Source of the DNA: Candidatus Omnitrophota bacterium
Lineage (GTDB): Bacteria; Omnitrophota; Gorgyraeia; Gygaellales; Profunditerraquicolaceae
Length of the DNA stretch: 64,000 nt
NCBI GenBank assembly: GCA_049275655.1
Contig: JBASUY010000020.1
Coordinates: 2,651 to 66,650, forward strand
Direction: 5' to 3'
Shown piece by piece: positions 2,732-39,638 of the stretch; positions within the stretch are counted from its first letter, which is position 1, and each line of letters opens with the position of its first letter. The translations under genes and the position numbers were made by a program. The notes beneath the pieces were generated by a model. It had not been told where the DNA came from and did no database searches. It saw only the letters and a list, made by a program, of their open reading frames with translations.

Positions 2732-2749
2732 ATATTAGGCTTATTTAAA

Positions 2750-3616
2750 TTAAAAATAAATAATAGCGCTACAAGCAATAATCCACAATACAATGCTTAA
2801 TTGCAGCGGTATATCGGATAATAGAATACGAATCGGATCATCATCTTTCTTAACTTTGTGAATAAGATAAAGATAGCGAAAGATACCATAATAGACAAAG
2901 GGCATAGTAAGTAGTAGTTTTGTAGTTCCAAATTCTCTTATTGTCCGAATATCCACAGTATAAAGCATATAAACTATTGTTATAGATGACGTAATTACCG
3001 CTATCATTTGATCTATGAAATAGATATCATATTCCACAAGTATAGAACGGTGCCGGATAGCTTTCTCTTGAAATAGATCTAATTCCTGCCGCCTTTTATT
3101 GAAACCTAAAAACATAGCAAGTAGGGCTATCATTATTATAACCCAGTAAGATAACTTAACTTCTGCCACTACGCCTCCAGATAAAATACGTAATAGGTAA
3201 AAAAAGGCTAAGCTAAAAACATCAATAATAACTACTTTTTTCAATATCTTAGAATAAAAAAAATTAGATATAGAATAAACGATAATTATATACCCAAAAT
3301 AGATATTTAGAATAAAAGATAAAGTAATAGAGAAAACTAATAATATAAAAGCTGCGGTTAAAGCTAACCTTATATTAACTTTACCTGAAGCTATAGGCCG
3401 TAAAGATTTAATTGGATGGCGCTTGTCTTTTTCTATATCTAAGATGTCATTTATAAGATACGCAGCACTAGCAGATAAGGAAAAAAGACAAAAGGCAAAA
3501 AATACTTTTAAATTTGCTGGGAAAATTAGCAATCTCTTCCCAAAGATTAAAGGAATAAAGATAAAAGTATTTTTAATCCACTGCTTAGGACGCAAAGAAA
3601 GGAATAAGTGCTTCAT
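2750..3616 (-). CDS. UbiA-family prenyltransferase, decaprenyl-phosphate phosphoribosyltransferase (DPPR synthase)-like
   Basis: 288 aa polytopic membrane protein with the NDILDIEKDKRHP motif (NDxxDxxxD of UbiA/DPPR synthases). Confidence 0.7.
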   Translation of the reverse strand: MKHLFLSLRPKQWIKNTFIFIPLIFGKRLLIFPANLKVFFAFCLFSLSASAAYLINDILDIEKDKRHPIKSLRPIASGKVNIRLALTAAFILLVFSITLSFILNIYFGYIIIVYSISNFFYSKILKKVVIIDVFSLAFFYLLRILSGGVVAEVKLSYWVIIMIALLAMFLGFNKRRQELDLFQEKAIRHRSILVEYDIYFIDQMIAVITSSITIVYMLYTVDIRTIREFGTTKLLLTMPFVYYGIFRYLYLIHKVKKDDDPIRILLSDIPLQLSIVLWIIACSAIIYF

Positions 3617-7546: not shown

Positions 7547-9367
7547 TTAAGATTGGTATATTTCCTTAATCGCCAGTTCTACTAAAAGGCTGTCCCAATT
7601 ATTCTTTATTAATTCTTTTTTTATTATTTTTAAATCAACTCCTTGAGCTTTTTTTACCGATATAAAGGCAACTAAAATAGATAGGTTAAATTTTTGTGTT
7701 TTACTTAAAATATTAATTATCGGTCTTTCTTTTTGAGTTTGATTTAGAAAAAAAGCAGCCAAGGCTATAAGTAGCGGAAATAATAGTAAACCTAAAGAAG
7801 AGTAAAATAGCGCTATGCTACTTCGGCCTAAAATATAAACTATTGTGCACCAAAATATATCAAAGAGATAATGAGCGACTAATACCGGGACTATCCCAAA
7901 GCGGATAAAGAACAAGCCATATAATAATCCGATTAGGGTAATCTCTATTATACGAAACCAAACCGGATATATAGCATAAAGGGTATGCCCCATCCCCCAA
8001 ACAAATGAAGCCAGTAGTATTGCCAGGATAGTGTTGCGCAGGTATTTTTTAGCAAAACTTATTCCGAAAAGCCTAAAGGTAATCTCTTCAGTCAGGCTGG
8101 CGTTGGCCCCTATTATCAACGCGCTTAATAAAGGTATACTACCAGAAGAAAAAGCAGCCATAGTGTACCACTCCCGCCAAATTCCTAAGAACTTTTGCCC
8201 GTTATGAAAAATTATTGCTTGGAGCCCAAGAGTAATTATCCAGAGTAGGTAACCAAGTAAAACTGAACTACTAAAATAACGGTTTAGGAAGCTTGAGCGA
8301 AGATAAGAGAAAAAGGAGATATATTTTTTTTCAGGGAAAGTCTCATTGGTTAAAATCTCTCCGGCGATCCCGGGCATAATAAAGCCAACTATTATAAAAA
8401 GATTATTAAATAACCATTTGGTAAATGCCAGCCCGAGAAAAGAATGCATTTGGGAATTAGTAGGGTAGTTCATATAAATATACTGCAGGTTATTTATAAA
8501 TCCGGCTAAGTTGATAGCTCCTAAAAATATTGCCATAGCGTAAAAAATTTTTTTTGTCATCTGCGGGACAATATCGCTTTTTTTACTTAGGACAATACTG
8601 ATAGAAATAGCCAATACAAAAAAAACAAAGATATTAAAAATATTATTAATATAACCAGCTAAGATGAACTGTTTATCCGTATATCTTTTGAATGTGTCAG
8701 GTAAATCAAATTTATTTTTTTGAAACTCCCTGACCTCATCTCCTGAGACTATTACTTCATTAAGTAGCTTAGCCCCTCCTTTGCCCGGCTCCCAAGGTAT
8801 ATAGACGTTTTTTTTCTCCCAAGAAAATATATATTCTATCCTATTTTCATAGCGCTTTATTTTTTCTTCGTGGAAATCATATTCGCTTAAGTCCGCATTA
8901 AATGTATTTTTTAGAAATTCCTTAGCTTTTATCTTTGCCTCTAATTTTCCTAAATCCGGCCTAGCCTCTGTATCTTCTATTAAATGTATAAAGCGGATGA
9001 CCTCCCCGGATTTTGCGCTTAAAAAGATTGAATACTCTTCTTTTTTTGATTCTTGAAAAAACCTGACAATCCAGCAAAATAAATCAAAATTATGCTTATG
9101 GATAAACTCTTTCTCTGCTTCTAACCCGACAGCATGCTGGAAATAGCGGTTAAAGTTGTCATTAATATCAAATACTACTGCTCGGGAGTAATTGCTAAGG
9201 TCAACATTCTTCTTTTTAAGATAATCGATAGATTTTTCTATAGCCTCTTTTTTATTAAAAGAAAGGTCGATAAAGGTAAAACGTGGGTATTCTAATCTAT
9301 GCCAAAAGCCAAAGGCTATTAAAGCTAAAATTATAATTATAAGCCAGTCTTTAACCTTTATTTTCAT
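7547..9367 (-). CDS. CPBP-family intramembrane metalloprotease (CAAX protease/Abi domain) with a large N-terminal extracytoplasmic domain
   Basis: 606 aa. The C-terminal region carries the CPBP motifs EEITFRLFG (EExxxR), FVWGMGH (FxxxH) and HYLFD (HxxxD). The N-terminal ~230 aa after the first TM helix has no recognisable motif. Confidence 0.6.
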   Translation of the reverse strand: MKIKVKDWLIIIILALIAFGFWHRLEYPRFTFIDLSFNKKEAIEKSIDYLKKKNVDLSNYSRAVVFDINDNFNRYFQHAVGLEAEKEFIHKHNFDLFCWIVRFFQESKKEEYSIFLSAKSGEVIRFIHLIEDTEARPDLGKLEAKIKAKEFLKNTFNADLSEYDFHEEKIKRYENRIEYIFSWEKKNVYIPWEPGKGGAKLLNEVIVSGDEVREFQKNKFDLPDTFKRYTDKQFILAGYINNIFNIFVFFVLAISISIVLSKKSDIVPQMTKKIFYAMAIFLGAINLAGFINNLQYIYMNYPTNSQMHSFLGLAFTKWLFNNLFIIVGFIMPGIAGEILTNETFPEKKYISFFSYLRSSFLNRYFSSSVLLGYLLWIITLGLQAIIFHNGQKFLGIWREWYTMAAFSSGSIPLLSALIIGANASLTEEITFRLFGISFAKKYLRNTILAILLASFVWGMGHTLYAIYPVWFRIIEITLIGLLYGLFFIRFGIVPVLVAHYLFDIFWCTIVYILGRSSIALFYSSLGLLLFPLLIALAAFFLNQTQKERPIINILSKTQKFNLSILVAFISVKKAQGVDLKIIKKELIKNNWDSLLVELAIKEIYQS

Positions 9368-12975: not shown

Positions 12976-15595
12976 CTTTTAGCCCCCTTAATTTTTTTAA
13001 TTCTTCCGTTAATGTGCGTAATTTTTCCTTTTCAGCATTAATTATTTCTTGTGGAGCCTTTTTTACAAAGTTCTTATTTTTAAGCAAGCGCTCCTTTGCT
13101 TGAATATCGGATTGGTATTTTACAATCCCCTTTTCTATATTTTCTATTTGTTTTTGAATGCCCGATACCTCCGTTAGCGGGATTACGATATGCATCCCTT
13201 TGAGTACATTTACATAGGTATTCTTTGAATACTTGTAGGCGTTTTCTATGGATACCTGATTAAGCCTTAAGAGTTGTTTTATAGTTAAGATATGGGATTC
13301 TAATAATAACCGGTTGAGCTTTGTTGAAGGGTAAATCAGAACCTTTAGCGTAGTATCGCAAGACGCTAAATTAAGGTCCATGCGCATACTCCTTATAACT
13401 CCTACAACCTCAAATATCTGGCCCATCTTTTTCTCTAAGGCAATATCAATGGCTTCTTTTTTAAGCTTTGGCCATGAAGAGACCATAATTGATTTATTCT
13501 TGGCCGGTAACCTTTGCCAAATCTCTTCGGTAATAAAAGGCATAAAGGGATGCGTTATCCTCAATGTTTTTTCTAAGATGCTATACATAATTAATTGATT
13601 ATGGGGATTTGTTGTATCTTGTTTAATAATCTCAAGGTAGCGGTCGCAAAATTCATGCCAAAAGAAAGAATAAATAGCATTAATTGCCTCATTTAGTTTA
13701 TAGGCATTTAGGTATTTTTCTACTTTTATTAAGGTTGAGTAAAACCTGCTTAATATCCAAGAGTTAACCGAGGTTAAAGATTTTTGAGTAAATAAAGCGG
13801 TAAGGTTTAAATCGGTATTTTTTATATCAAGGTTTGTTAGGATAAACCGCGAAGCGTTCCATATCTTATTGGCAAAGTTTCTGCCCTGTTCAAACTTTTC
13901 TTTTGATAAAAATAAATCTTGGCCCTGAGAAGCAGCAGAGATCAGGCTAAAACGTAAAGCATCCGTCCCGTATTCTTTTATAATATCTAAAGGGTCAATG
14001 CTATTACCTAAAGACTTAGACATTTTTTTCCCTTCTCTATCACGTACTGTCCCATGGATATAGACATCTTCAAAAGGCACTCTGCCTTTAAACTCTAATC
14101 CCGCCATAATCATCCGGGCAACCCAAAAAAATATAATCTCAGGAGCAGTTACTAGAACAGATGACGGGTAGTAATACTCAAGGTCTTTTTTTGATATGCC
14201 TGCAAAAGGCCAAAGCCAAGAAGAAAACCAAGTATCTAAGACATCTTCGTCTTGATATATATTGCTTCCGTTGCATTTAGGGCAAAGTTGTGGTTTGGTT
14301 CTAGATACTATAATCTGCTTATCCTCACCACAATCCTTACAGTAATAGACAGGGATTCTATGCCCCCACCATATCTGTCTTGATATGCACCAGTCCTGTA
14401 TGTTATTCATCCAATTAAGATAAACCTTTGTCCAGCGATTAGGATAGAACCTTACCTTTTTGTCTTTCACTGCCTTAATTGCTGGCTTAGCTAAAGGTTG
14501 CATCTTGACAAACCATTGCTTTGATAAGTACGGCTCTACTATTGTATGGCAACGGTAGCAATGGCCCGTCGATAATTTATGCGGCTCTATTTTTTCTAAT
14601 AACCCTAAAGATTTTAAGTCTTTGATAATCTCTTCTCTAGCCTTAAACCTATCTAAATTGCAATATTTTCCTGCAGAGGCGTTCATCTTTGCATCCGGAT
14701 TCATAACGTTTATAAAATCTAAATTATGCTTTTTTGCAAGCAGGTAGTCATTAGGGTCATGAGCAGGGGTAATCTTAACAGCGCCGCTACCGAACTTCAT
14801 ATCTATAGAGGTATCTGCTATTATTTTTATTGGGCGGTCCACAAGAGGCAGGGTTACTATTTTACCGATTAATTTTTTATAACGGCTATCTTTAGGGTTA
14901 ACTGCCACTGCAGTATCTCCGAGCATAGTTTCAGGTCGGGTGGTAGCAACAAGAATATATCCGGATGAGTCTTTTAACGGGTATCTTAAATAGTAAAGCT
15001 TGCCTTCTAAGGGTTGATGGGCAGCTTCCTCGTTGGATAAAGCTGTCTGGCAACGCGGGCACCAATTGATAATATATCTTCCGCGATAGATTAACCCTTT
15101 TTCGTAGAGTTTTATAAAAATATCCGTTACTGCTTTAGAATAATCTTTGTCCATAGTAAAGCGTAACCTATTCCAATCGCAGGAAGCGCCTATTTTTTTA
15201 AGTTGATGGATTATCGTAGAGCCGTATTCTTCTCTCCAGAGCCAAACTCTCTCAATAAATTTATCCCTTCCTAAATCCTGCCGCTTTAAACCATCTTTAA
15301 GCAGGGTTTTTTCTACTACATTTTGAGTAGCTATCCCTGCATGGTCTGTCCCGGGGAACCACAAAGCCTCAAACCCAAGCATCCTTTTATAACGTATAAG
15401 TATATCCTGTATTGTATTGTTTAAGGCATGTCCCATATGCAGTATCCCTGTTACGTTAGGCGGAGGGATTATAATGGCATAGGGGGTTTTATGGGAGTTA
15501 GGTTTAGAGCCAAAGAAACCACTATCCTCCCAATATTTATACCAATGCCCTTCAACCTCTAGGGGGGCGTAGTGTTTTTTTAGTTCGCTATTCAT
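12959..15595 (-). CDS. valS: Valine--tRNA ligase
   Basis: 878 aa. HIGH motif (PPNVTGILHMGHALN), KMSKS motif (KMSKSLGN), and a C-terminal coiled coil. Confidence 0.95.
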   Translation of the reverse strand: MNSELKKHYAPLEVEGHWYKYWEDSGFFGSKPNSHKTPYAIIIPPPNVTGILHMGHALNNTIQDILIRYKRMLGFEALWFPGTDHAGIATQNVVEKTLLKDGLKRQDLGRDKFIERVWLWREEYGSTIIHQLKKIGASCDWNRLRFTMDKDYSKAVTDIFIKLYEKGLIYRGRYIINWCPRCQTALSNEEAAHQPLEGKLYYLRYPLKDSSGYILVATTRPETMLGDTAVAVNPKDSRYKKLIGKIVTLPLVDRPIKIIADTSIDMKFGSGAVKITPAHDPNDYLLAKKHNLDFINVMNPDAKMNASAGKYCNLDRFKAREEIIKDLKSLGLLEKIEPHKLSTGHCYRCHTIVEPYLSKQWFVKMQPLAKPAIKAVKDKKVRFYPNRWTKVYLNWMNNIQDWCISRQIWWGHRIPVYYCKDCGEDKQIIVSRTKPQLCPKCNGSNIYQDEDVLDTWFSSWLWPFAGISKKDLEYYYPSSVLVTAPEIIFFWVARMIMAGLEFKGRVPFEDVYIHGTVRDREGKKMSKSLGNSIDPLDIIKEYGTDALRFSLISAASQGQDLFLSKEKFEQGRNFANKIWNASRFILTNLDIKNTDLNLTALFTQKSLTSVNSWILSRFYSTLIKVEKYLNAYKLNEAINAIYSFFWHEFCDRYLEIIKQDTTNPHNQLIMYSILEKTLRITHPFMPFITEEIWQRLPAKNKSIMVSSWPKLKKEAIDIALEKKMGQIFEVVGVIRSMRMDLNLASCDTTLKVLIYPSTKLNRLLLESHILTIKQLLRLNQVSIENAYKYSKNTYVNVLKGMHIVIPLTEVSGIQKQIENIEKGIVKYQSDIQAKERLLKNKNFVKKAPQEIINAEKEKLRTLTEELKKLRGLKDGLKT

Positions 15596-17160
15596 TTAAT
15601 ATTATCTTTTAAGAGTTTATATTCAATACTATCAACAAGCGCTTGCCAGCTGGCTTCAATTATATTCTCTGAGACCCCTATTGTACTCCATGAGTTTTTT
15701 GCATCTTCCGATTGTATTAATACCCTAACCTTTGCCGCAGTCCCGGATTTTTCATCAAGGACACGTACCTTAAAGTCAGTAAGGCGCATCTTAGAAAGAG
15801 TAGGATAATAATCTTTGAGCGCTTTTCTTAGGGCATTATCGAGGGCATTTACCGGCCCTTCCCCCATAGATACGGTATGCTCTCTCTTCCCTTTAATGCG
15901 CAATTTGATAATCGCCTCCGTAGTTATCCGCCTGTTGGATTGTTTTTCGGTTGTTACCCTAAAGCCTTCCAGCTCAAAAAATTTACCGAGTTTTCTTAAG
16001 GCTCGCCTCATTAGAATCTCAAAAGATGCCTCTGCCGCTTCAAAGTGATACCCTTTATGTTCTAATTTTTGCACGAGTTGTAAAATCTTTTTAGCGTCGG
16101 GAGAATCTTTTTTTATGCTAAGGTTTAAATCTTTTGCCCGCGTTAATACTCCGGATTTACCGGCTAATTCAGAGACAAGAACCCTGCGGGTATTTCCGAC
16201 TAAAGAAGGATCTATATGTTCGTATGTCTTAGGGTTTTTAATAATAGCATTGATATGCATCCCCCCTTTATGCGCAAAACTAGATTGGCCGACATAGGGT
16301 TGGTCGTTTTTATGTTTTAAATTGCTGATCTCGCTTATAAAATGCGAAATGTGGGTTAATTCTTTAAGTTTTTCATCGGCAATACAATTTATCCCCATTT
16401 TAAGCTTAAGGTTAGCGATTATAGGTATAAGGTCAGCATTTCCCGCCCTCTCTCCTATTCCATTTATAGTCCCTTGCACCATATCAGCTCCGGCTAATAC
16501 GGCGGCAAGAGAATTGGCTATCGCGCAACCGGTATCGTTATGGCAATGTATTCCTATGCCTACCCTAAGTTTTCCTTTAAGTAAAGATACTACCTGTGTA
16601 ATTTCATGCGGTAGGGTTCCGCCGTTAGTATCGCATAGGCAAATCTGCTTTGCCCCTGCTTCCTGGGCGGCTAAAAGGGTTTCAATAGCATAGTTTTTAT
16701 TGTGGTTAAAGGCCTCAAAAAAGTGTTCTGCATCATAAAAGACGGTTAATCCTTTGGACGTAAGATAGCTGATTGTATCTTTTATCATTTCTATATTTTC
16801 AGCCAAAGTAGCCTTTAAGACATCGGTTACATGCAGGTCCCATGTCTTTCCTACTATCGTTATGATATCGGCATTTGACTTAAGAAGAGAGTTTATATTT
16901 GGGTCATTTTTGGCTTTTAAGTTTAACCTGCGGGTCATGCTAAATGCGGCAAGTTTGGAATTATTAAGCTTTACCCTACCCATCTTAAGGAAAAATTCCA
17001 TATCTTTAGGATTAGAGCCGGGCCAACCTCCTTCTATAAAGTGAATCCCTAAGAGGTCTAATTCTTTAACGATGCGGATTTTATCCGTTACCGAATATGA
17101 TATCCCTTCGGCTTGTGAACCGTCGCGTAGTGTAGTGTCATATATCTTAACCAGTTTCAT
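15592..17160 (-). CDS. cimA: (R)-citramalate synthase (2-isopropylmalate synthase family)
   Basis: 522 aa. N-terminal KIYDTTLRDGSQAEGIS is the DRE-TIM metallolyase signature. Its length and C-terminal regulatory domain are typical of CimA. Confidence 0.75.
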   Translation of the reverse strand: MKLVKIYDTTLRDGSQAEGISYSVTDKIRIVKELDLLGIHFIEGGWPGSNPKDMEFFLKMGRVKLNNSKLAAFSMTRRLNLKAKNDPNINSLLKSNADIITIVGKTWDLHVTDVLKATLAENIEMIKDTISYLTSKGLTVFYDAEHFFEAFNHNKNYAIETLLAAQEAGAKQICLCDTNGGTLPHEITQVVSLLKGKLRVGIGIHCHNDTGCAIANSLAAVLAGADMVQGTINGIGERAGNADLIPIIANLKLKMGINCIADEKLKELTHISHFISEISNLKHKNDQPYVGQSSFAHKGGMHINAIIKNPKTYEHIDPSLVGNTRRVLVSELAGKSGVLTRAKDLNLSIKKDSPDAKKILQLVQKLEHKGYHFEAAEASFEILMRRALRKLGKFFELEGFRVTTEKQSNRRITTEAIIKLRIKGKREHTVSMGEGPVNALDNALRKALKDYYPTLSKMRLTDFKVRVLDEKSGTAAKVRVLIQSEDAKNSWSTIGVSENIIEASWQALVDSIEYKLLKDNIK

Positions 17161-17173
17161 ATCTGCCTCTCTT

Positions 17174-18397
17174 TTATCTTTTTGTTAACCCAAACTTGCT
17201 ATGCAAGGCACGAACGGCCTTTTGGGCAAACTTTTTTTGCACTATACAGGAGATACTGATATCGGAGGTTGAAATCATCTCTATATTTATCTTATGCCTT
17301 GCTAAGACTTCAAACATCTTTCCGGCTACGCCGGGATGAGACTTCATCCCAACCCCTACAATAGAGATACGCGCTATATCCGCATTCTTGACTACCTCCT
17401 TTATTCCTATATCCGGCTTAATTTTATTTATTAATTTTATTGCGTTTAAGGCATCGGCTCTATCTACGGTAAAAGATATATCTGTTTTTCTAAGGTGGCT
17501 TACGTTTTGTACTATCATATCCACGCTTACTTCTTTATCCGCCAGTTCATTAAATATCTTTGCTGCTATCCCCGGCTGGTCGGGGACATTGCGTACGGTG
17601 ATCTTAACTTCATTTTTATTCATAGTGATTGCAGAGACTACTACATCTTCCATATTTTTAACCTCCTTAATAATCATCGTTCCGGAATTATTATTAAAGC
17701 TGGAACGGACATGTATAGGCACATTGAATTTTTTAGCTACTTCTATGGAGCGCGCCTGCATTATCTGTGCGCCCAAAGAAGCCATCTCCAGCATCTCATC
17801 ATAGGTAATCTCTTTTATCTTTCTTGCCTTTGGCTCAACTGCAGGGTCTGTTGTGTATATTCCTTTGACATCCGTATAGATTTCGCATTTATCCGCCCCC
17901 AGCTCTTTGGCCAGAGCAACAGCAGTAAGGTCTGAGCCACCCCTGCCTAAAGTGGTTATATCCTGATTTAGATTTACTCCTTGGAACCCCGCGACCACTA
18001 CAACCTGCCCTTTTTTTATCGCCTCTTTGATTTTATCGGCATTTATTTTTATGATTCGTGCGCGGGTATGGGAGGAGTCTGTTATAATTCCTACTTGCGC
18101 TCCAGTAAATGATACTGCTTCGGTTTTAAGTTTTTGAATAGCCATTGCCAAAAGAGCAACGGATATCTGTTCGCCGGTTGAAAGGAGCATATCCATCTCC
18201 CGCTTAGAAGGTTTATTAGTTATTTTTGAAGAGAGCTTTATCAAATCGTCGGTAGTATCCCCTAAGGCAGAGACTACCACAACTAGGTTAAAGCCTTTTT
18301 TTCTGTAACTGACAACTCTTTTGGCGACTTTCAATATGCGCTCTACATTAGCAACAGAAGAGCCGCCGAATTTTTGTATAATTAATTTTTTACTCAT
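17174..18397 (-). CDS. lysC: Aspartate kinase
   Basis: Amino-acid kinase fold (KFGGSSV) plus two C-terminal ACT domains. Start set at MSKKLIIQKFGG, the internal Met of the track ORF, which just overlaps the cstA stop. Confidence 0.9.
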   Translation of the reverse strand: MSKKLIIQKFGGSSVANVERILKVAKRVVSYRKKGFNLVVVVSALGDTTDDLIKLSSKITNKPSKREMDMLLSTGEQISVALLAMAIQKLKTEAVSFTGAQVGIITDSSHTRARIIKINADKIKEAIKKGQVVVVAGFQGVNLNQDITTLGRGGSDLTAVALAKELGADKCEIYTDVKGIYTTDPAVEPKARKIKEITYDEMLEMASLGAQIMQARSIEVAKKFNVPIHVRSSFNNNSGTMIIKEVKNMEDVVVSAITMNKNEVKITVRNVPDQPGIAAKIFNELADKEVSVDMIVQNVSHLRKTDISFTVDRADALNAIKLINKIKPDIGIKEVVKNADIARISIVGVGMKSHPGVAGKMFEVLARHKINIEMISTSDISISCIVQKKFAQKAVRALHSKFGLTKR

Positions 18398-19976
18398 CTT
18401 TTTTTCTCCTGATAACTTTAAATATAAGTTCAATAGTCATAAAGGATGCTAATAAAAGCAATAAAAGAGTTATTATAAAAAGAGGTAAATCCCTTTGCCT
18501 GATATATTCAAAAGCCTGAAGAGCCAATGCCCCCATGGATGTAGCAAGCATAAATATAGCAGGTAAGAATACTAAAGCCGAAGGCCTACTTTTAGATAAT
18601 AAATATGCCCCTAAAACAAATAAGGCAAGCGTTGCTACTAACTGATTAGCCGCTCCAAATGCAGGCCAGACTTTATTCCATTGCCCGCTTAAGGCTAAGG
18701 ATAAAGAGATAAGCACTATGATTGCAGTAGAAAGGTACCTGTTTTTTATTTGAAACAGCTCTTCTGTTAAATAGCGTAAGATCCTGGTAGCTGTATCTAA
18801 AGTAGTAAGTATAAAAGCATTTAGTATAGTTACTGCAATAAGCCCCCCAAAATCCCCTAAAAATCCTTTAGTTAAGGCATTAAAGCCTTGGGCAAATATG
18901 CCTATAGGGCCTATAGATTTTAAGGCTAACGAAGCGTCCCCCGGAGTTTTGAAGATAATCCCTACGCTAATAATTGCTATTACTGCTAATAACGCTTCTA
19001 CTACCATTCCTCCGTAGCCGATTCTTTTAGCATGGCGCTGACTATTAATTTGTTTAGATGTAGTACCGCTGGATATTAAAGCATGGAAACCCGATACTGC
19101 GCCACAGGCAACCGTAACAAAAAGCATTGGCCAAAGCTTAAGGTTATTAGGTGCCCATTGGGTATAGGAGGGCATGGTAATTTGCGGCCTTGAAAATAAG
19201 ATACCTAAATAACCTATCAATATTCCAAAAAAGAGTAAAAAGCTGGCTAAGTAGTCGCGGGGTTGTAAGAGTAAATTAACCGGAAGTATTGATGCAAGAT
19301 AAGAGTATAAAAATAATACCACTAACCAGAAAAATACCCCTGAAGTTACAGGTAGATGGTTACCGAGCAGAATAAGGCTTAAGAGGAGAATAAGCCCTAA
19401 GGAGGTTGCTAAGAAACTATTTACTTTTAAATAATACAAAAGATAGCCAATTAACAAAGCAACCGGTATAAGCCCTAATGAAGGCAGGACTATCTTAGGT
19501 TCTTTCACAAAGGTATCCGCGCATAGATAAGCAAACACGGATATAATCAATATTAAGGTAAACCATAAAAAAAGCGAGGTTAATATCTTTGCCCTTTTGG
19601 ATATTACCCTTCCTGCGATATCCGAGATAGAGCTCCCCCCTTCTTTTACAGAAGTTATCAAAGAGCCGAAATCATGGACTCCACCTATAAATATAGATCC
19701 TAAGACTACCCATAAGAGCGCCGGAAGCCATCCCCATAAGGCTACTGCAATAACAGGCCCTATAATAGGCCCTGCTCCGGCAATAGAAGAAAAGTGGTGC
19801 CCAAATAAAACCAACCAGTTCCGCGCCGGGACATAGTCTACGTTGTCAAACTTATAATTGGCAGGAGTAGATTTTTTAAAATCAACTTGCCATAATCTTT
19901 CAAGCCTCTTAGCGTAAATAAGATAGCCTGCTCCTAAAAGAATAAAAGCAACTAAAGAGATATAAAGAGCGCTCAT
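18390..19976 (-). CDS. cstA: Carbon starvation protein A family transporter
   Basis: 528 aa polytopic membrane protein with the CstA-like HHFSSIAGAGPIIGPVIA motif. Confidence 0.8.
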   Translation of the reverse strand: MSALYISLVAFILLGAGYLIYAKRLERLWQVDFKKSTPANYKFDNVDYVPARNWLVLFGHHFSSIAGAGPIIGPVIAVALWGWLPALLWVVLGSIFIGGVHDFGSLITSVKEGGSSISDIAGRVISKRAKILTSLFLWFTLILIISVFAYLCADTFVKEPKIVLPSLGLIPVALLIGYLLYYLKVNSFLATSLGLILLLSLILLGNHLPVTSGVFFWLVVLFLYSYLASILPVNLLLQPRDYLASFLLFFGILIGYLGILFSRPQITMPSYTQWAPNNLKLWPMLFVTVACGAVSGFHALISSGTTSKQINSQRHAKRIGYGGMVVEALLAVIAIISVGIIFKTPGDASLALKSIGPIGIFAQGFNALTKGFLGDFGGLIAVTILNAFILTTLDTATRILRYLTEELFQIKNRYLSTAIIVLISLSLALSGQWNKVWPAFGAANQLVATLALFVLGAYLLSKSRPSALVFLPAIFMLATSMGALALQAFEYIRQRDLPLFIITLLLLLLASFMTIELIFKVIRRKKDE

Positions 19977-21175
19977 TCCGCCTTTCTGATAAAAAAATCC
20001 ATAAGCTCATGCCCTCTTTCAAAGGTAAGCCCGCTTTTTAAGGATTCTTTCTCACTATAGTTTAAAAAACCTCTTGCAATGATATTATGTCCAAATATCC
20101 CAAAAGGAACAGGGTCTGAGGTATGCGTTTTAAGAGAGACAGGGGTAGGATGATCCGGTAATACCATCAACCTAAAGTTTCTCTTGCGTTTAAAGTACTT
20201 AAGGACTCTGCCTAAAATCAACTGGTCAAATCTCTCTATGGCAATAATCTTTTCTCTTAAATCTCCGTTATGCCCTGCTTCATCAGCTGCTTCTAAGTGG
20301 AGAAAAACAAAGTCTTTATCTTCAAGCGCCTTTAATGCTGCCTTTGCCTTTCCCTCATAATTAGTATCATAATAACCGGTTGCTCCCGGGACATTAATAA
20401 CTTCAAGGCCAATTGTTTTGCCTAACCCTTTAATTAAATTTACCGCAGAGATTACACTTCCTTTAATACCGTACTTTTCATAGAAGCTCTCCATTAAAGG
20501 GCGCTTCCCTTGTCCCCAGAGCCAAATCATATTAGCAGGGTTTTCTTTTAAATCTAAGCGGACAAGGTTAATCTCATGTTTTTCTAATATTTTTTTAGAC
20601 TCCTGCATGAGATTAATAAGGATACTTGCATTATCGCCTTTAGGCAGGTTTCTTGAAATACTTTTTCCGGTTATATCGTGCGGTGGACGGCAAGTTATCC
20701 TATCAAGATGTTCTTCTGCCCCTCGCTTAACAACCATAAGATGGCGGTAACTTACCCCGGGGTAAAACTTAATTCTATTAGTACCTAAGGCACGATCAAT
20801 AAACTTTATAATTATCTCAGCCTCTTTAGAGCTGATATGCCCTGCGCTATAGTCGCGCAGTATATCATTAGATGCAGTAATGAGATTACACCTAAAAGCT
20901 ACATCGTCATCTTCTAATTTTACTCCAAGGTTGGCTGCCTCAAGGGGAGCTCTACCGGAATAGTATTTTTTAGGGTCATAGCCGAATATAGAGATTTGTG
21001 CGATATCTGAACCTGGAGTAAACCCTTCCGGGACGGTCCGCACTCTTCCTAAACGCCCGTATTTGGCGATAAAGTCCATATTCGGCGTGCGCGCAGCCTC
21101 TAAAGGCGTGCGCCCGCGTATCTCTTTTTGCGGAATATCAGCCATCCCATCGCAGACTAAAACAATATATTTCAT
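19973..21175 (-). CDS. Archaeal-type cofactor-independent phosphoglycerate mutase family protein (ApgM-like), candidate non-orthologous homoserine kinase
   Basis: 400 aa. MKYIVLVCDGMADIP is the metal-binding N-terminus of the ApgM/phosphopentomutase superfamily. It lies among the aspartate-family genes lysC, thrC and hom. Confidence 0.75.
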   Translation of the reverse strand: MKYIVLVCDGMADIPQKEIRGRTPLEAARTPNMDFIAKYGRLGRVRTVPEGFTPGSDIAQISIFGYDPKKYYSGRAPLEAANLGVKLEDDDVAFRCNLITASNDILRDYSAGHISSKEAEIIIKFIDRALGTNRIKFYPGVSYRHLMVVKRGAEEHLDRITCRPPHDITGKSISRNLPKGDNASILINLMQESKKILEKHEINLVRLDLKENPANMIWLWGQGKRPLMESFYEKYGIKGSVISAVNLIKGLGKTIGLEVINVPGATGYYDTNYEGKAKAALKALEDKDFVFLHLEAADEAGHNGDLREKIIAIERFDQLILGRVLKYFKRKRNFRLMVLPDHPTPVSLKTHTSDPVPFGIFGHNIIARGFLNYSEKESLKSGLTFERGHELMDFFIRKAE

Positions 21176-21180: not shown

Positions 21181-21738
21181 TTAAAATGTTACCTGCGGCA
21201 CTTTCTTAGCCGTATCATCTGCCTTAAAATATTCTGTTGCCGGCTTATAGCCAAAATTAGAAGCGATAATATTACCCGGGAATGTCCTTACCGATATATT
21301 ATACTCTCTGACAGATTCATTGTAACGCATCCTTTCTACTGCTATTCTATTTTCTGTCCCGGACAATTCATCCATAAGCTTTAAAAATGTCTGGTCTGCT
21401 TTTAGGTCAGGGTAGTTCTCTGCTACAAAAAGCAACCTAGACAAAGCAGCGTCTATTTCTCCGGCTGCTTTAACCTTCTCTTCAACGGTAGACGCCTTAG
21501 CCCATTGGGAGCGGGCTAAGGTAACATTTTCAAGGACCGTCTTTTCATGCGCGGCATAACCTTTTACTGTATTTAAAAGATTAGGTATCAAGTCATTTCT
21601 TCGTTGCAATTGATTTTCTACCTGCGCCCATTTAGCGGTTATAGCCTCATGCTTAGAGATGATACCGTTATAAAGAGCGATAATAATTCCTATTAATATA
21701 ACTACGGCTAGTATAACTCCAATAACTATCTTTTTCAT
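21181..21738 (-). CDS. lemA: LemA family protein
   Basis: 185 aa. N-terminal TM helix followed by the LemA signature region (KWAQVENQLQRRNDLIPNL). Confidence 0.85.
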   Translation of the reverse strand: MKKIVIGVILAVVILIGIIIALYNGIISKHEAITAKWAQVENQLQRRNDLIPNLLNTVKGYAAHEKTVLENVTLARSQWAKASTVEEKVKAAGEIDAALSRLLFVAENYPDLKADQTFLKLMDELSGTENRIAVERMRYNESVREYNISVRTFPGNIIASNFGYKPATEYFKADDTAKKVPQVTF

Positions 21739-21767
21739 TATTCTGCCCTCCCTTTTTATATTAAGTA

Positions 21768-22661
21768 TTAAAATTTTCCTCCGGCTCCGCCACCTCCGCC
21801 TCTACCTCCGCCAAACCCACCGCCGCCAAATCCTCCCCCACCGATTCCTCCGCCAAACCCACCGCTCCTAAAACCCCCACTACCCCACTTACCAGATGAG
21901 GATTTACTGCCAAAATCTAATGGGCCAAAAAAACTCTTTCTTTTTTCCTTAGGGAGTTTTTTCCAATAAAAATACCTCATTAACATTGAAAGGATGAAAG
22001 CAAGGAATATTATAATTCCTAACGGTTTAGAGACACCCAAGAAAAATACGGTAGAAAATAATAAGGTTACTGGTAGGCTTATAGGTATCGGCCAAGGGAA
22101 GCTCCAAATAAAAAAGAAAACCGGAATAATAAAATAAAAAATAAACGGATTATCTTTTTCTTCAGATTTTTCCCCACTTTCTAAACTACTTTTAGAGAGA
22201 ATTGCGGTAATTTTAATAATCCCAGTATAGATTCCCTCGCCGTAATTCCCTGATTTAAAATAAGGGGCCATGTAATCGCGTCCTATCTGGCCGCATAAAC
22301 CATCAGGTAGGTCTCCTTCTATGCCATACCCTGTTTCAATTCGCCAAAGCCTTTCTTTTTCTGCTACAAGGATTAAAACTCCGTTGTCTTTATCTTTTTT
22401 CCCCGGTTTCCAATTATCAAAGACCATCCGGGTAAATTCTTTCTCTTCATAAGGAGAAATGGTTTTAAAGGTAGCCACAACTACCTCAACCCCTGTTTTT
22501 TCTTCTAACTCGGAAATTAAAGTATTAATCTTTTCTTTGTATTCAGGATTAATAATACCGGCAAAATCATTCACCCACCCAGAAGGAGAGGGTATTTCAA
22601 AGGCAAATAGGCAAGAAAAAGAAAGAAATAGAATAAAGGCAAGAATAATAACCTTACGCAT
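21768..22661 (-). CDS. TPM-domain (YgcG-like) protein with glycine-rich C-terminal tail
   Basis: Signal peptide, TPM fold region, TM helix, then the tail GGFGGGIGGGGFGGGGFGGGRGGGGGAGG. LemA-TPM is a conserved gene pair. Confidence 0.7.
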   Translation of the reverse strand: MRKVIILAFILFLSFSCLFAFEIPSPSGWVNDFAGIINPEYKEKINTLISELEEKTGVEVVVATFKTISPYEEKEFTRMVFDNWKPGKKDKDNGVLILVAEKERLWRIETGYGIEGDLPDGLCGQIGRDYMAPYFKSGNYGEGIYTGIIKITAILSKSSLESGEKSEEKDNPFIFYFIIPVFFFIWSFPWPIPISLPVTLLFSTVFFLGVSKPLGIIIFLAFILSMLMRYFYWKKLPKEKRKSFFGPLDFGSKSSSGKWGSGGFRSGGFGGGIGGGGFGGGGFGGGRGGGGGAGGKF

Positions 22662-23295
22662 AATAGCCCCCGATTATTTTTATAGCCCCTTTTACAAGAG
22701 ACTCCCTGTCCTTAAAAACTTTACTGATTTTATTCTCTTCCATTAAAAAGGCAGAATATTTGCCGTCTTTTACAGTATTAGATATGACTAAATCCGCGCA
22801 AGACTGCCTTATTAATTTAACTGCTTCTTTGTATAAATTATCCTTTTTGGCCTCCGGCTCATATTTAAATCCGATGAGAAATATCTTTGGTTGTATCTTT
22901 TTAAATAAGCGGATAATTTTAAAAGTCGGCTTAAATTTTATAGTTAAGCTTTTTAAATTAGATTTAATTTTTTTAGGATACGGCATGCAAGGCGCATAAT
23001 CAGATACCGCTGCGCTATGTATTGCTATATCGTACTTTTTATTTTTAAGCTCTTTTTTTATTAGGTTATTCAACTCATCAAAAAACTTATATTTCTTTAC
23101 CGTTATACTCCTTTTTTGCAAAGGTAGATTAATTGGCCCTAATAAAAGGGTAACCTTAGAGCCAAGCCTCTTAAAAGCGTCAGCAAAGAGTAGCCCTGTT
23201 TTGCCGCTAGCAGTATTGCTGATTACTCTTACCTTATCTATCTTAACCCAGGTCGGGCCTGCGGTAATAAGAACCCTCTTATTCTTTAATTTCAT
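22654..23295 (-). CDS. coaB: Phosphopantothenate--cysteine ligase domain protein (stand-alone CoaB)
   Basis: 213 aa. [25 protein letters not shown] matches the CoaB motif ITAGPTxEPIDPVRxIxNxSSGKMG. No CoaC flavoprotein domain is attached. Confidence 0.75.
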
Positions 23296-24352
23296 CTAAT
23301 AGGGCATTTAATTCTGGTTTTATTACTTTTGGATCTGCTATGTTCTTTATCGTTGTATCAGGGTCTTTTAGTCCATGCCCAGTTAAAATACAAACTATTC
23401 TGTTTATCTTTTTGCCTGTATTTTTTATAGCATCTTTAAAGTAGCCCTGCTTTGAAAGTTTAAACAGCCCTGCTATAGAAGATGCTGAGGCAGGCTCTAT
23501 AAACACTCCGTCGGTTTTGGCGATAAATTTATAGGCATCTATTATCTCTTTATCTGAGACCATATCTATTAACCCGCCTGATTCATCACGTGCTCTTTCT
23601 GCTTGCTTCCAGCTGGCAGGGTTTCCGATACGTATAGCTGTAGCTATTGTTTCAGGTTTTTCTATAGGGTAACCCCTTACTATCGGGGCAGACCCTTCTG
23701 CTTGAAATCCAAGCATTTTAGGCAGAGTCTTTGATAGTTTTAGGCCATGGTATTCTTTATAACCTTTCCAGTATGCAGTAATATTCCCGGCATTTCCCAC
23801 CGGCATAATTTGAAAATCAGGCGCGTCGCCTAAAAAGTCGCATATTTCAAAGCTGGCAGTCTTCTGTCCTTCTATGCGGTAAGGGTTAAGGGAATTTACC
23901 AAGGTTAGGGAATTTTTATCCGAGGCTTCTCTTACCAAGGTTAAAGCCTCATCAAAATTTCCTTCAACGGCCAAAACAACTGCTCCGTGTATAAGCGCTT
24001 GGCTTAATTTACCGAGGGCAATTGCCCCTTTTGGTATTAAAACTACGCATTTAATTTTAGCCCGAGCCGCATAAGCTGCAGCAGAAGCTGAGGTGTTTCC
24101 TGTAGAAGCACATATAACAGCCCTAGAGCCTTCTTCTTTGGCTTTAGAAATAGCCAAAGTCATCCCCCTGTCCTTAAATGAGCCTGTGGGATTTAGGCCC
24201 TCAACCTTAAGGTAAACTTCAAAACCTTCTCCTAAAAAACTGCTCAAAGATGGGGAGAAGAGTAATGGAGTATTCCCCTCATTTAAGGTTATAACCGGAG
24301 TCTTACCAGTAACAGGAAGGTATTTTTTATATCTATTAATTACCCCTATCAT
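23279..24352 (-). CDS. thrC: Threonine synthase
   Basis: 357 aa PLP-fold type II enzyme with the lysine motif in [11 protein letters not shown]. Confidence 0.9.
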
Positions 24353-25644
24353 ATCTCTTCCATCCTTATTGCTACAGACTTCTCTTTAATTGATTCTATG
24401 CGGTCAATAATATTAAGCGCTCTTCTTAAATCTTTTTCTTTTGCCTCGTGAATAAGCATTATAATAGGGACAAGTTTAGACTTGTTTTTTTCTTTTTGGG
24501 TAACCGAAGATATGCTTATTCCGAATTTAGCTAAGACTCCTGAAATCTTTGCTAAAACGCCAGGTTTATCTAAGGCAGTAAAACGTATATAGTAGCGGCT
24601 CAAGGACTCATCTATCTTGCGTAGCCTTTTTATGGATTTATCCTGCACAGCGTTCATCATTGGCCTAAAAAGCCCTGCCTTTATATCTTTGGTTAAATCT
24701 ACTATATCTGAGACTACGGCTGAAGCAGCTGAGAGTTGCCCTGCCCCGGGTCCGTAAAATAATAAGTCTCCAGCTAAATCTGCCTCAACATATATTGCGT
24801 TAAAGACTCCGTCAATTGAAGATAAAAGATGATCTTTTGGTATTAAAGTCGGATGCACTCTAACCTCTAAATCTTCTTTTTCTCTTTGGGCGATAGCAAG
24901 GAGTTTAATCTTAAAACCTAACTCTTTAGCATAATTAATATCTGCTAATGAAATACGCGAGATTCCTTCAATAAAAATATCACGCATATTTACCATCTTA
25001 CCGAAGGATAGGTAAGTAAGTAGCGCTAACTTATGCGCAGAGTCTATTCCCTGAACATCTAAAGTCGGATCCTTTTCAGCAAAACCTTTTCTCTGGGCTT
25101 CTTTAAGTGCCTCTGAAAAGGTTATTCCTTTAGTAGACATTGAAGAGAGTATATAATTAGATGTCCCATTAAGAATCCCGAGTATACTATTAAAATTATT
25201 AGAGACTAATCCTTCTCTTAAAGATTTTATGATTGGTATGCCTGCCCCTACTGAGGCTTCAAAATATATGCTTTTCCCCTTAGCGCCTGCTTCTAAAAAA
25301 AGCTCTTCTCCATAGGTGGCTAAAAGCGCTTTATTTGCAGTAACGATATTCTTACCTCTCTTAATAGAATCAAGGATAAGTTCTCTTGCCGGGTGAATTC
25401 CGCCTATTAGTTCTACCATTATATCTATTTGAGGGTCTTCAATAATGTCCTTAGGATTGCGAGTAAGAAGCATTTTATTGACACTTACATTGCGTTTAGA
25501 GGTAATATCTTGGTCGCATATCTTTCTTATATTTATATCTAAACCTATCTTAGCGCTTAAAAGAGTTCGTTTTTCCCGTAGGATTTTAACAACCCCAGAA
25601 CCAATATTCCCAAAGCCAATTAATCCAATATTGATTTTTTTCAT
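24349..25644 (-). CDS. hom: Homoserine dehydrogenase
   Basis: 431 aa. N-terminal NAD-binding [13 protein letters not shown], catalytic domain, and a C-terminal ACT domain. Confidence 0.9.
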
Positions 25645-26045: not shown

Positions 26046-26070
26046 ACCCCCTTAGTTTTAAGTGTAATAG

Positions 26071-26145
26071 TCGGGGCGGACAGACTTGAACTGTCGACCT
26101 CTTGAACCCCATTCAAGCGCTCTAGCCAAACTGAGCCACGCCCCG
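26071..26145 (-). tRNA. tRNA-Pro (anticodon GGG)
   Basis: Manual fold. Acceptor CGGGGCG/CGCCCCG, D-stem GCTC/GAGC, anticodon stem CTTGA/TCAAG with loop ATGGGGT, T-arm GACAG-TTCAAGT-CTGTC. No encoded CCA. Confidence 0.85.
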
Positions 26146-27540: not shown

Positions 27541-28290
27541 TTATTTTATAGCTAAATTATTTTTATTTGTCCTTATCTTTGCTAAATCCCAAGCGTAATC
27601 ATATAAGTGTAATCCTTTACTTAGAGCAATAATTTCTCCGTCTTCAACGCCTATTTCTTCAGCCATATATTGCTTGACTAATTGAAGGCCACCTAAGTTA
27701 GAAGGGAAACCTCCCCATAAATCCCAAGAGCGAAAATAAAGTATGAAATGTAATTTTCCGTAACGTAGGCGCGTATCTATAATCCTTAGGCACGGAGGGT
27801 CAAGAAGCTTTATATCCGAAGGCATGCCTATCTCCATAGTTGCCTGGTTGGTTCCGGCGCCTTTTTCCCGGTAAAGTTTTATAACCTCCTCAATCTGGTT
27901 TACGCAAAGAGGCATCTCCCGGACCATCTCTTTGCCGTTTACATTCTCTTTAAACTTAACCTTAGGGTCAACCAACCTCTCTCCATAAGTATAATCTTCC
28001 GTATCTGTTTTAGTCCCGGTTAAAAGATAAGTTAAATAACCTTGGATATAATCCATATCTGTAGGAGCAGGAATTCCCATCCCTTCAGGAATTATAGGAA
28101 TGATTTGATGAGACGGTTTTTTAACTCTTATCGCCGCAAAATCAAATTCTAGCCTTTTCTGCCCTTCGTAACTTCCCTTAGTAATAGTGTAAACATGCCC
28201 ATGCTCTAAAATTTCGGATAGAGATTGAAACCAAGCATCATCAAGATCAAATGCATCAATAAAAATAGGTTTTAAAAGCTCTTCGGTCAT
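27541..28290 (-). CDS. Thymidylate synthase (ThyA) fold protein, divergent, short archaeal-like form
   Basis: 249 aa. LLDPPCLRIIDTRLRYGKLHFILYFRSWDLWGGFPSNLGG...GLHLYDYA aligns to the ThyA core ([38 protein letters not shown]...GDTHLYSNH). Catalytic Cys and the Asn of dUMP-type enzymes are retained. The His after Cys is replaced by Leu. Confidence 0.55.
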   Translation of the reverse strand: MTEELLKPIFIDAFDLDDAWFQSLSEILEHGHVYTITKGSYEGQKRLEFDFAAIRVKKPSHQIIPIIPEGMGIPAPTDMDYIQGYLTYLLTGTKTDTEDYTYGERLVDPKVKFKENVNGKEMVREMPLCVNQIEEVIKLYREKGAGTNQATMEIGMPSDIKLLDPPCLRIIDTRLRYGKLHFILYFRSWDLWGGFPSNLGGLQLVKQYMAEEIGVEDGEIIALSKGLHLYDYAWDLAKIRTNKNNLAIK

Positions 28291-38636: not shown

Positions 38637-38660
38637 CCTTGATCTCCCTTTAAAAGACTC

Positions 38661-39596: not shown

Positions 39597-39638
39597 ACAA
39601 CTCCTCTAAACTTCATTTTAGCAATAAATTTATCTTAA

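Follow-up and report, generated by a model that had tools for sequence, protein, structure and literature searches.

A probable HomK-type homoserine phosphotransferase, named as a phosphoglycerate mutase, in a threonine operon of Candidatus Omnitrophota

A minus-strand ORF with an ATG start, designated homK here, extends exactly from position 19973 to 21175 of the 64-kb window (the whole stretch of Omnitrophota DNA that was analysed) and encodes a protein of 400 aa (Table 1). It lies within a packed run of genes, PilZ-hom-thrC-coaB-TPM-LemA-[homK]-cstA-lysC-cimA-valS-nadC, in which homK and its named neighbours share the minus strand and the intergenic gaps from PilZ to nadC range from -17 to +29 nt. 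The hom and thrC genes overlap by 4 nt and the ATG of cstA overlaps the stop codon of homK (ATGA). Both thrC, 2.1 kb from homK, and hom, 3.2 kb from it, are located upstream on the same strand, with no gap exceeding 29 nt. The original prediction had placed here a homolog of the archaeal-type cofactor-independent phosphoglycerate mutases (ApgM), between lysC/cstA and thrC/hom and on the same strand, with cimA nearby. All these neighbours are confirmed, and the ORF and its same-strand neighbourhood are real, far beyond chance.

The product of thrC is, by family score, a canonical threonine synthase using phosphohomoserine. The true start of lysC is probably the ATG at position 18397, which gives the 407-aa form used by gene callers. 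The citramalate synthase encoded by cimA opens a threonine-independent route to 2-oxobutyrate and isoleucine. The three genes lying between homK and thrC (coaB, TPM and LemA, 21181..23295) have no obvious role in threonine synthesis. No riboswitch or regulatory RNA was found in the operon, the Rfam matches being tRNAs only. Promoter-like and terminator-like sites occur in the operon at chance frequency only, and no terminator signal exceeds it.

Table 1. Genes of the operon and predicted functional residues of the homK product (positions in the 64-kb window)
Feature	Position	Strand	Basis or remark
homK, putative homoserine phosphotransferase (ThrB2/TIGR02535 type; ApgM fold)	19973..21175	-	400 aa; TIGR02535, PF10143 + PF01676, 2zkt
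hom, homoserine dehydrogenase (makes the HomK substrate)	24349..25644	-	NF004976, 525.5 bits
thrC, threonine synthase (uses O-phosphohomoserine)	23279..24352	-	TIGR00260, 329.2 bits
coaB, standalone	22654-23295	-	Pfam DFP
TPM-domain protein	21768-22661	-	Pfam TPM_phosphatase
LemA	21181-21738	-	Pfam LemA
cstA, CstA-family transporter, between homK and lysC	18390..19976	-	PF02554, 429.7 bits
lysC, monofunctional aspartate kinase	17174..18433	-	NF005155, 585 bits
cimA, citramalate synthase	15592..17160	-	TIGR00977, 744.2 bits (cut-off 450)
Metal ligand D9	21149-21151	-	completes the metal set
Ser56 codon, predicted phospho-accepting nucleophile	21008..21010	-	matches the serine of GSD in 2zkt and 3kd8
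DYSAGH motif, residues 108-113, cap domain	20837..20854	-	DRRAGR in mutases
HLEAADEAGH, residues 293-302, with E295 and metal ligands D298 and H302	20270..20299	-	aligned to HFKPTDAAGH (2zkt) and NIKATDVAGH (3kd8)
Metal ligands D341, H342 and H351	20123..20155	-	kept with 2zkt and 3kd8

The 400-aa protein carries the two-domain Metalloenzyme and PhosphMutase fold with its serine nucleophile. The Pfam domains PhosphMutase (PF10143, residues 37-203, E=1e-59) and Metalloenzyme (PF01676, residues 1-394, E=6e-46) are the only ones that Pfam finds in it, and the HAD fold with the DxD motif of ThrH is absent. Its closest solved structure is the ApgM of P. horikoshii (2zkt, E=2e-69), and its nearest relative in a collection of species representatives is at most 82% identical. 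Its NCBI name is “cofactor-independent phosphoglycerate mutase”. Among the NCBIfam models, TIGR02535 (“proposed homoserine kinase”) gives 556.6 bits, above its trusted cut-off of 446.3 and more than the 528.8 bits of TIGR00306, the broad apgM subfamily model, which is also passed. The cut-off of NF003242, a model named “cofactor-independent phosphoglycerate mutase”, is passed as well (570.8 bits). The protein fails NF003104 (340.5 bits, cut-off 489) and NF003160 (217.6 bits, cut-off 468), two mutase equivalog models that rest on characterised archaeal enzymes.

The catalytic apparatus of the mutases is intact, whereas their substrate pocket is not. The serine and all six metal ligands (D9, D298, H302, D341, H342, H351) align with those of 2zkt and 3kd8 and are invariant among the relatives; Ser56 is found in 88/88 related loci and in 120/120 database matches. 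On the other hand, the cationic pocket of the mutases is absent, since their K/R/R/R are replaced by E295/S110/H113/W220 in a comparison with three mutase-type sequences only. In the cap domain, S110 (83/88 loci) and H113 (87/88 loci), both present in all 120 database matches, occupy the positions of two arginines in 2zkt, 3kd8 and a mutase-type paralog from one of the related loci (L078). In the same way, W220 stands where mutase-type sequences have an arginine, and Y143 where they have a histidine. The column of E295, three residues ahead of the metal-binding D298, is the sole one with Glu throughout the clade and Lys in 2zkt, 3kd8 and the L078 paralog. Its invariance among the 80 best species-level loci is partly circular, since the peptide patterns PGATGYYD and EA[AP]DEAGH served to retrieve them, but Glu is also present in 120/120 matches of a protein search in which that motif was not used. 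A glutamate at the equivalent site, E299 in BT2402 of Bacteroides thetaiotaomicron against Lys in mutases, is the published rule for recognizing HomK (GapMind 2026, bioRxiv 10.1101/2024.10.14.618325). As E295 lies in the only Glu-versus-Lys column, we infer that it is the counterpart of E299. This glutamate does not by itself fix the acceptor, since Glu-bearing homologs encoded beside cobD may phosphorylate threonine instead (GapMind, bioRxiv 10.1101/2024.10.14.618325).

Other enzymes able to phosphorylate homoserine, and other mutases, were looked for in the window. No GHMP kinase, dPGM, iPGM, HAD-type ThrH or glycerate kinase is encoded by its main-strand ORFs of at least 110 aa, among which there is no HAD protein of any kind, a six-frame tblastn search using ThrB, GpmA and GpmM of E. 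coli as queries gave no match in the 64 kb at E<=0.01, and there is no Pfam match to the GHMP_kinases_N/C domains. The claim that lysC, hom and thrC are present in the window and a thrB-like GHMP kinase is not thus holds, on family scores for the former and on the ORF scan and tblastn for the latter. Canonical thrB is likewise absent from the 88 related loci that were fetched, of which the 80 species-level ones amount to about 0.97 Mb. Because thrC needs a supplier of phosphohomoserine and neither ThrB, ThrH nor another mutase is seen in the window, this was counted as a pathway need for HomK.

The gene neighbourhood is kept well beyond this genome. The relatives compared are the best 80 species-level loci from a scan of genome contigs, none of them from Bacteroidota. 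Among these best 80, hom, thrC or lysC lies on the strand of homK in 70, and this linkage spans several phyla including Brocadia, Nitrospirota and others. Where the flank suffices, linkage is seen upstream in 45/54 loci, hom being upstream of homK in relatives too, and downstream in 46/57, where the gene is lysC. The cimA gene follows lysC in 49/80, while coaB (26/80), LemA (14/80) and TPM (8/80) vary in presence. A CstA-family gene occupies the same slot in 17/80 species, and the idea that cstA is a lineage-private insertion was rejected on this ground. The locus L078 holds two paralogs, a HomK-type copy adjoining lysC-cimA and, 6 kb off, the mutase-type copy. This latter passes NF003160 (573 bits), reaches 183 bits with TIGR02535, has Lys at the specificity site and is rejected by NF003242 (188.9 bits against a cut-off of 426), whereas on all three HomK-type proteins tested NF003242 scores in step with TIGR02535.

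The family to which this gene belongs (HomK/ThrB2/TIGR02535) is already recognised, and the gene is an ordinary member of it. TIGRFAMs first proposed the family as a homoserine kinase, with PEP as the suggested donor. BT2402 was then found to be needed for growth without threonine (fitness data, 2020; PMC7311316), ThrB2 and thrB were reported to have complementary occurrence (comparative genomics, 2022; PMC9026213), and both BT2402 and DET_RS08350 from Dehalococcoides mccartyi rescue an E. coli thrB::kan mutant (GapMind 2026, bioRxiv 10.1101/2024.10.14.618325). The statement that this family had been proposed as the missing homoserine kinase was therefore correct, and is now stronger owing to these complementations. 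No literature specific to threonine synthesis in Omnitrophota was found. The first 124 aa of DET_RS08350, the extent of a truncated gBlock sequence, align without gaps with the protein studied here at 48% identity, with D9, S56 and YSAGHISS in common. BT2402 and DET_RS08350 share with it the fold, the D9/S56 numbering (S56 bears the same number in BT2402) and the specificity Glu, and are co-encoded with hom and thrC. In Bacteroidetes, homK belongs to a three-gene operon with thrC and the gene of a bifunctional homoserine-synthesis enzyme (Asd-Hom in PMC9026213), whereas in the layout seen here coaB, TPM and LemA separate homK from thrC, and the CstA-family gene, lysC and cimA follow.

Taken as a whole, family membership, conserved residues and operon linkage, which are what was observed here, make it very likely that this gene encodes HomK (ThrB2, TIGR02535) and that its product would supply O-phospho-L-homoserine to ThrC in place of a GHMP-type ThrB. 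For the homologs, the evidence consists of a genetic need for threonine synthesis and of the complementation of E. coli thrB, the direct product of HomK resting on genetics and modelling. The reading of this gene as a candidate homoserine kinase is thus supported by the family cut-off, E295, the serine and metal ligands and the linkage in 70 of the best 80 loci, although the idea is not new. The word “kinase” is what fares less well: since the fold lacks a nucleotide site and ATP is probably not the donor, the term is probably a misnomer. ThrB (E. coli b0003), an ATP-dependent GHMP enzyme, carries out the same step of the pathway, giving O-phosphohomoserine to ThrC, but has no kinship with HomK in sequence or fold.

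HomK would be a two-metal phosphotransferase of the alkaline phosphatase superfamily that descends from archaeal-type cofactor-independent phosphoglycerate mutases. A phosphorylated donor would bind between the core and cap domains and phosphorylate Ser56, with the assistance of two divalent cations held by D9/S56/D341/H342 and by D298/H302/H351. After departure of the donor, L-homoserine would enter the same pocket, its alpha-amino group being held by E295, and the phosphate would pass from phospho-Ser56 to the gamma-hydroxyl of homoserine. Such a ping-pong transfer through phospho-Ser56 from a donor other than ATP is the most likely mechanism according to this model. The phospho-Ser intermediate is very probably common to HomK and ApgM, given that both have the same serine and two-metal site.

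The nature of the donor can be narrowed to some extent. It is unlikely to be ATP and probably not phosphoglycerate, because the cationic residues (K, R/R/R) by which mutases hold phosphoglycerate are gone from the pocket. By analogy, O-phosphoserine is a reasonable candidate, though at somewhat less than even chances: it has the same amino-acid backbone as homoserine and there is the precedent of ThrH, the phosphoserine:homoserine phosphotransferase of Pseudomonas aeruginosa, which was cited as such for HomK (GapMind, bioRxiv 10.1101/2024.10.14.618325). ThrH could be a functional analogue, transferring phosphate from a non-ATP donor via a covalent phospho-enzyme, but the resemblance is at most functional, as its fold is an unrelated HAD fold with an Asp nucleophile. 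Phosphoenolpyruvate, suggested by TIGRFAMs, is a rather doubtful donor, 2- or 3-phosphoglycerate is doubtful to the same degree, and some other compound is just as unlikely. As for this question in the whole HomK family, the locus described here is no more tractable than the enzymes from cultured organisms already in hand.

Several other functions were considered for this gene. The first is that it encodes a glycolytic or gluconeogenic ApgM-type phosphoglycerate mutase, located in an amino-acid operon by chance. This would agree with the full-length homology to 2zkt and 3kd8, with the intact serine and metal sites, with the scores above the NF003242 and TIGR00306 cut-offs and the NCBI name, and with the lack of another mutase in the 64-kb window. 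ApgM (2zkt, 3kd8/3idd; TIGR00306, NF003104, NF003160) indeed has the same two-domain architecture, catalytic serine and two-metal site, but its context is glycolysis while homK lies in a threonine operon, and the protein differs from it by K to E295, DRRAGR to DYSAGH, R to W220 and H to Y143, besides missing the NF003104 and NF003160 cut-offs. The replacement of the substrate-contacting Lys by Glu and of three mutase Arg by Ser, His and Trp leaves the site without the positive charge that phosphoglycerate requires. Furthermore, NF003242 probably describes the HomK clade under a legacy mutase name, since this model tracks TIGR02535 and rejects the mutase-type paralog. The linkage to hom, thrC and lysC kept across phyla, the presence of both paralogs in a single genome (L078) and the rescue of thrB by family members, one of them 48% identical over 124 residues, also argue against a mutase, which is the least probable of the functions considered.

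In a bifunctional variant, 2- or 3-phosphoglycerate would donate its phosphate to homoserine and the phosphate would also be returned to glycerate, so that one enzyme would act as mutase and phosphotransferase in a small Omnitrophota genome. Its descent speaks for it, the ancestral mutases passing through the same phospho-Ser intermediate. It is nevertheless very unlikely in view of the loss of the Lys and Arg residues, of glycerate kinase not being enriched alongside HomK (53%, against 67% in ThrB genomes; GapMind, bioRxiv 10.1101/2024.10.14.618325) and of the failure to find glycerate kinase in the window. Just as unlikely is a phosphotransferase acting on another hydroxy-amino acid or aspartate-family intermediate (making O-phosphothreonine, as suggested for the cobD-linked homologs, or dephosphorylating phosphoserine or phosphohomoserine) and not committed to replacing ThrB. 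The specificity Glu selects an amino group and not homoserine specifically, Glu-bearing homologs beside cobD are reported by GapMind, and the reaction of HomK is known from genetics and modelling rather than from work in vitro. However, unlike the cobD-linked proteins described by GapMind, this one scores higher with TIGR02535 than with TIGR00306 and lies above the trusted cut-off; no cobD is nearby, the conserved partners being hom, thrC and lysC; and thrC needs phosphohomoserine, for which no other supplier is visible in the window.

With HomK as the preferred assignment, a more speculative extension concerns metabolism. PEP or phosphoglycerate could be the donor in Omnitrophota, tying threonine synthesis to lower glycolysis, or the enzyme could be a bifunctional one and the sole member of the mutase family in the cell; this is improbable. 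If the donor were PEP or phosphoglycerate, homK-(cstA)-lysC-cimA would make up a pyruvate-centred module, in which the pyruvate used by citramalate synthase and in the lysine branch would be released by HomK or taken up through the CstA-family transporter.

The practical value of the finding lies in annotation. NF003242, presented as an “equivalog”, appears to be a HomK model under a mutase name, judging from the three HomK-type proteins and one mutase-type paralog tested. The substitutions in the cap, DYSAGH for DRRAGR and W220 for Arg, may help to class borderline sequences and guide mutagenesis. Public databases give this protein, and thousands of similar ones, the name “cofactor-independent phosphoglycerate mutase”. 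In the metabolism reconstructed for uncultured phyla, Omnitrophota among them, this name makes the threonine pathway appear interrupted and glycolysis appear whole.

The original prediction had placed an archaeal-type ApgM homolog among aspartate-family genes, and a complete ORF was recovered at exactly this place (see the table), with an ATG start and a product of 400 aa. In Pfam, its PhosphMutase domain (PF10143, residues 37-203) is inserted within a Metalloenzyme domain (PF01676, residues 1-394), the domain pair of archaeal-type cofactor-independent phosphoglycerate mutases, and among solved structures the product is closest to the ApgM entries 2zkt (E=2e-69) and 3kd8/3idd (E=6e-60). Its fold is established as that of a phospho-Ser, two-metal phosphotransferase. 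Its TIGR02535/HomK type is established as well. The protein scores 556.6 bits with the NCBIfam model TIGR02535, “proposed homoserine kinase” (trusted cut-off 446.3), and does not pass the mutase equivalogs NF003104 (340 vs a cut-off of 489) and NF003160 (218 vs 468).

It should be noted that the protein also passes NF003242, a model named “cofactor-independent phosphoglycerate mutase”, and that this name explains the mutase annotation given by NCBI; a deposited Candidatus Omnitrophota MAG protein, 100% identical to the target, bears it. All named entries among the best 120 database matches (71-100% identity) are from Omnitrophota. NF003242 parallels TIGR02535 on the three HomK-type proteins scored, with 570.8 and 556.6 bits respectively for the target, 570.8 and 558.2 for the gene at 8001-9218 of L078 (a related locus from the Nitrospiraceae MAG UBA6898) and 558.4 and 545.9 for the gene at 8001-9197 of L080 (another related locus). 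It rejects the one mutase-type paralog scored, at 1647-2855 of L078 (188.9 bits vs a cut-off of 426). Judging from these scores, NF003242 appears to be effectively a HomK model under an inherited name, and the mutase name given by NCBI to the HomK clade is probably a systematic mis-annotation.

The residues of the active site argue in the same direction. E. coli thrB::kan was rescued both by BT2402 from Bacteroides thetaiotaomicron and by the divergent DET_RS08350 from Dehalococcoides mccartyi, and the family, then named HomK, keeps the catalytic Ser56 and the metal ligands of the mutases, one position separating them, Glu in HomK (E299 in BT2402) vs Lys in mutases (bioRxiv 10.1101/2024.10.14.618325, GapMind 2026). 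D9 and S56 of the target have the same numbering as in BT2402, and its metal ligands D298, H302, D341, H342 and H351 are matched in the alignment by the ligands of 2zkt and 3kd8. Its segment HLEAADEAGH (residues 293-302) is aligned to HFKPTDAAGH in 2zkt and NIKATDVAGH in 3kd8, and E295 is the sole column with Glu in the HomK clade and Lys in all three mutase-type sequences (these two structures and the L078 paralog). E295, which is equated with E299 of BT2402 by inference and not by direct alignment, is unchanged in all 88 HomK-type sequences of the fetched loci, a partly circular count since these loci were found by the peptide patterns PGATGYYD and EA[AP]DEAGH, and in 120 of 120 matches of a protein search run without that motif.

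A second signature lies in the cap domain. Three positions occupied by Arg in the three mutase-type sequences are Ser110, His113 and Trp220 in the target, so that the motif DRRAGR becomes DYSAGH, and a mutase-type His is replaced by Tyr143; all four residues are invariant in 120 close homologs, the mutase side of this comparison consisting of three sequences only. The first 124 translated residues of DET_RS08350 (GapMind 2026 supplement, synthetic gene start) are 48% identical to the target without gaps and have D9, S56 and YSAGHISS in common with it. Thus, the same change in the cap domain is present in an experimentally validated HomK, one misclassified by TIGRFAMs. Counted with the replacement of Lys by E295, the three Arg losses leave the presumed substrate pocket with four fewer positive charges than in these three mutase-type sequences, which is hard to reconcile with phosphoglycerate binding.

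The genomic context points to threonine synthesis. The neighbours named by the original prediction (hom, thrC, cstA, lysC and cimA) are all real and all on the strand of the target, which sits with the maker of homoserine (hom) and the consumer of O-phosphohomoserine (thrC).

Features of the homK region and of the rest of the window
Feature	Position	Strand	Remarks
Aromatic amino-acid cluster	60604-63889	-	
ORF, 127 aa	55858-56241	-	no Pfam match at E<=1e-5
ORF, 923 aa	53027-55798	-	no Pfam match at E<=1e-5
ORF, 1072 aa	49777-52995	+	no Pfam match at E<=1e-5; only long plus-strand gene of the window
Corrinoid iron-sulfur protein module	37848-42584	-	Wood-Ljungdahl
249-aa protein	27541-28290	-	weak partial thymidylate synthase match only (PF00303, E=7e-9, residues 128-241)
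tRNA-Pro(GGG)	26070-26145	-	called by ARAGORN, missed by the Rfam tRNA model at gathering threshold
hom	24349-25644	-	
thrC	23279-24352	-	
Standalone coaB, TPM-domain protein, LemA	21181-23295	-	coaB: phosphopantothenate-cysteine ligase domain only, 213 aa
homK (target)	19973-21175	-	
CstA-family transporter	18390-19976	-	short, 528 aa; PF02554, 430 bits
lysC	17174-18433	-	gene callers start at ATG 18397
cimA	15592-17160	-	TIGR00977, 744 bits
ORF, 590 aa	3650-5422	-	no Pfam match at E<=1e-5

From a PilZ gene at 26045 to nadC at 12118, intergenic distances range from -17 to +29 nt, the TGA of the target overlapping the ATG of the transporter gene. An Rfam scan detected no regulatory RNA in the operon, and terminator-like hairpins are no more frequent than expected by chance. 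This arrangement reads as one long operon including the target, hom and thrC, which probably starts after the tRNA-Pro gene lying just upstream, its probable 5' boundary. The three genes between thrC and the target have no evident tie to threonine synthesis; the TPM-domain protein has a glycine-rich C-terminal tail (GGFGGG).

The order hom-thrC-coaB-(x)-(TPM)-(LemA)-homK-lysC-cimA-valS is found in four relatives with long contigs, at 73-78% identity. A scan of species-representative genomes gave, as the best 80 loci (51-82% identity), sequences from Omnitrophota, Planctomycetota (including Ca. Brocadia), Nitrospirota, Ca. Ratteibacteria, Ca. Auribacterota and a few archaea. Same-strand hom, thrC or lysC accompany homK in 70 of them, the ten loci devoid of such context being mostly on short contigs; hom or thrC is found in 45 of the 54 loci with at least 3.5 kb upstream, and lysC in 46 of the 57 with at least 3.5 kb downstream. 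coaB holds its position between thrC and homK in 26/80 relatives.

The translationally coupled cstA occupies exactly the same homK-lysC slot in 17 of the 80 species-level relatives (loci L012, L014, L019, L023, L027, L029, L030, L031, L037, L042, L044, L046, L047, L050, L052, L056 and L060). Since this slot recurs and cstA identity (50-64%) tracks homK divergence, an old linkage with repeated loss is suggested. CstA and BtsT of E. coli are pyruvate transporters, and both the adjacent CimA and the lysine branch use pyruvate as substrate.

The window had been predicted to lack a thrB-like kinase, and both searches made within it came back empty. When every main-strand ORF of at least 110 aa was compared with Pfam or NCBIfam, none was a GHMP kinase, a histidine-phosphatase-type dPGM, a bacterial iPGM, a HAD-type ThrH or a glycerate kinase. 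Six-frame tblastn with authentic E. coli ThrB, GpmA and GpmM (NC_000913.3) gave no match at E<=0.01 in the window or the 88 related loci, and the mutase-type ApgM paralog used as query matched only the target gene in the window. L078 carries two ApgM homologs. One (8001-9218, plus strand), of HomK type with Glu at the key site, adjoins lysC-cimA; the other (1647-2855, minus strand), 6 kb away among unrelated neighbours, has Lys at this site, passes NF003160 (573 bits) and fails TIGR02535 (183 bits). Both functions can therefore share one genome as separate paralogs.

Taken with the TIGR02535 score, E295 and the linkage to hom, thrC and lysC, these data uphold the proposal of a non-orthologous homoserine kinase, and the target is very probably the replacement of ThrB. 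The genetics of its homologs indicate that the HomK family supplies the homoserine-phosphorylating step. The donor would phosphorylate Ser56, homoserine would then bind, E295 holding its amino group, and the phosphate would pass to the gamma-hydroxyl of homoserine. ATP is an unlikely donor because the fold has no nucleotide site. TIGRFAMs suggested PEP (PMC7311316), whereas bioRxiv 10.1101/2024.10.14.618325 favours phosphoserine and argues against phosphoglycerate, citing a lack of co-occurrence between glycerate kinase and HomK. The window content does not discriminate among these candidates; we tentatively place phosphoserine foremost, at somewhat under an even chance, and consider PEP, phosphoglycerate or some other compound each rather improbable, to the same degree.

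Elsewhere in the window, the corrinoid iron-sulfur module (two CdhD/AcsC/D-like subunits, a pterin-binding methyltransferase-like protein and the RACo reductive activator) suggests an acetyl-CoA-pathway anaerobe. The 249-aa protein is possibly a divergent enzyme of the ThyA type; in relatives, it is kept between PilZ genes and a pair formed by a response regulator and a PAS histidine kinase. The aromatic cluster encodes an ACT-domain protein, a class I/II aminotransferase, a DAHP synthase with an N-terminal ferredoxin-like domain and a prephenate dehydrogenase; with the aspartate-family operon, it suggests that substantial amino-acid biosynthesis is kept in this Omnitrophota genome.

TIGRFAMs curators reportedly proposed the homoserine kinase function about two decades ago. 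This proposal is recounted in PMC7311316, which in 2020 added supporting B. thetaiotaomicron fitness data; an occurrence complementary to thrB across 2,856 gut genomes and the name ThrB2 followed in 2022 (PMC9026213), and confirmation via complementation in 2024-2026 (bioRxiv 10.1101/2024.10.14.618325). By every sequence criterion the target is a textbook HomK member, an ordinary finding, and a sequence identical to it is public. Only the occurrence in Omnitrophota with a very stable operon, the probable misnaming of NF003242 and the DYSAGH/W220 signature are new here. For the family, L078 provides a natural paired example of HomK-type and mutase-type specificities.
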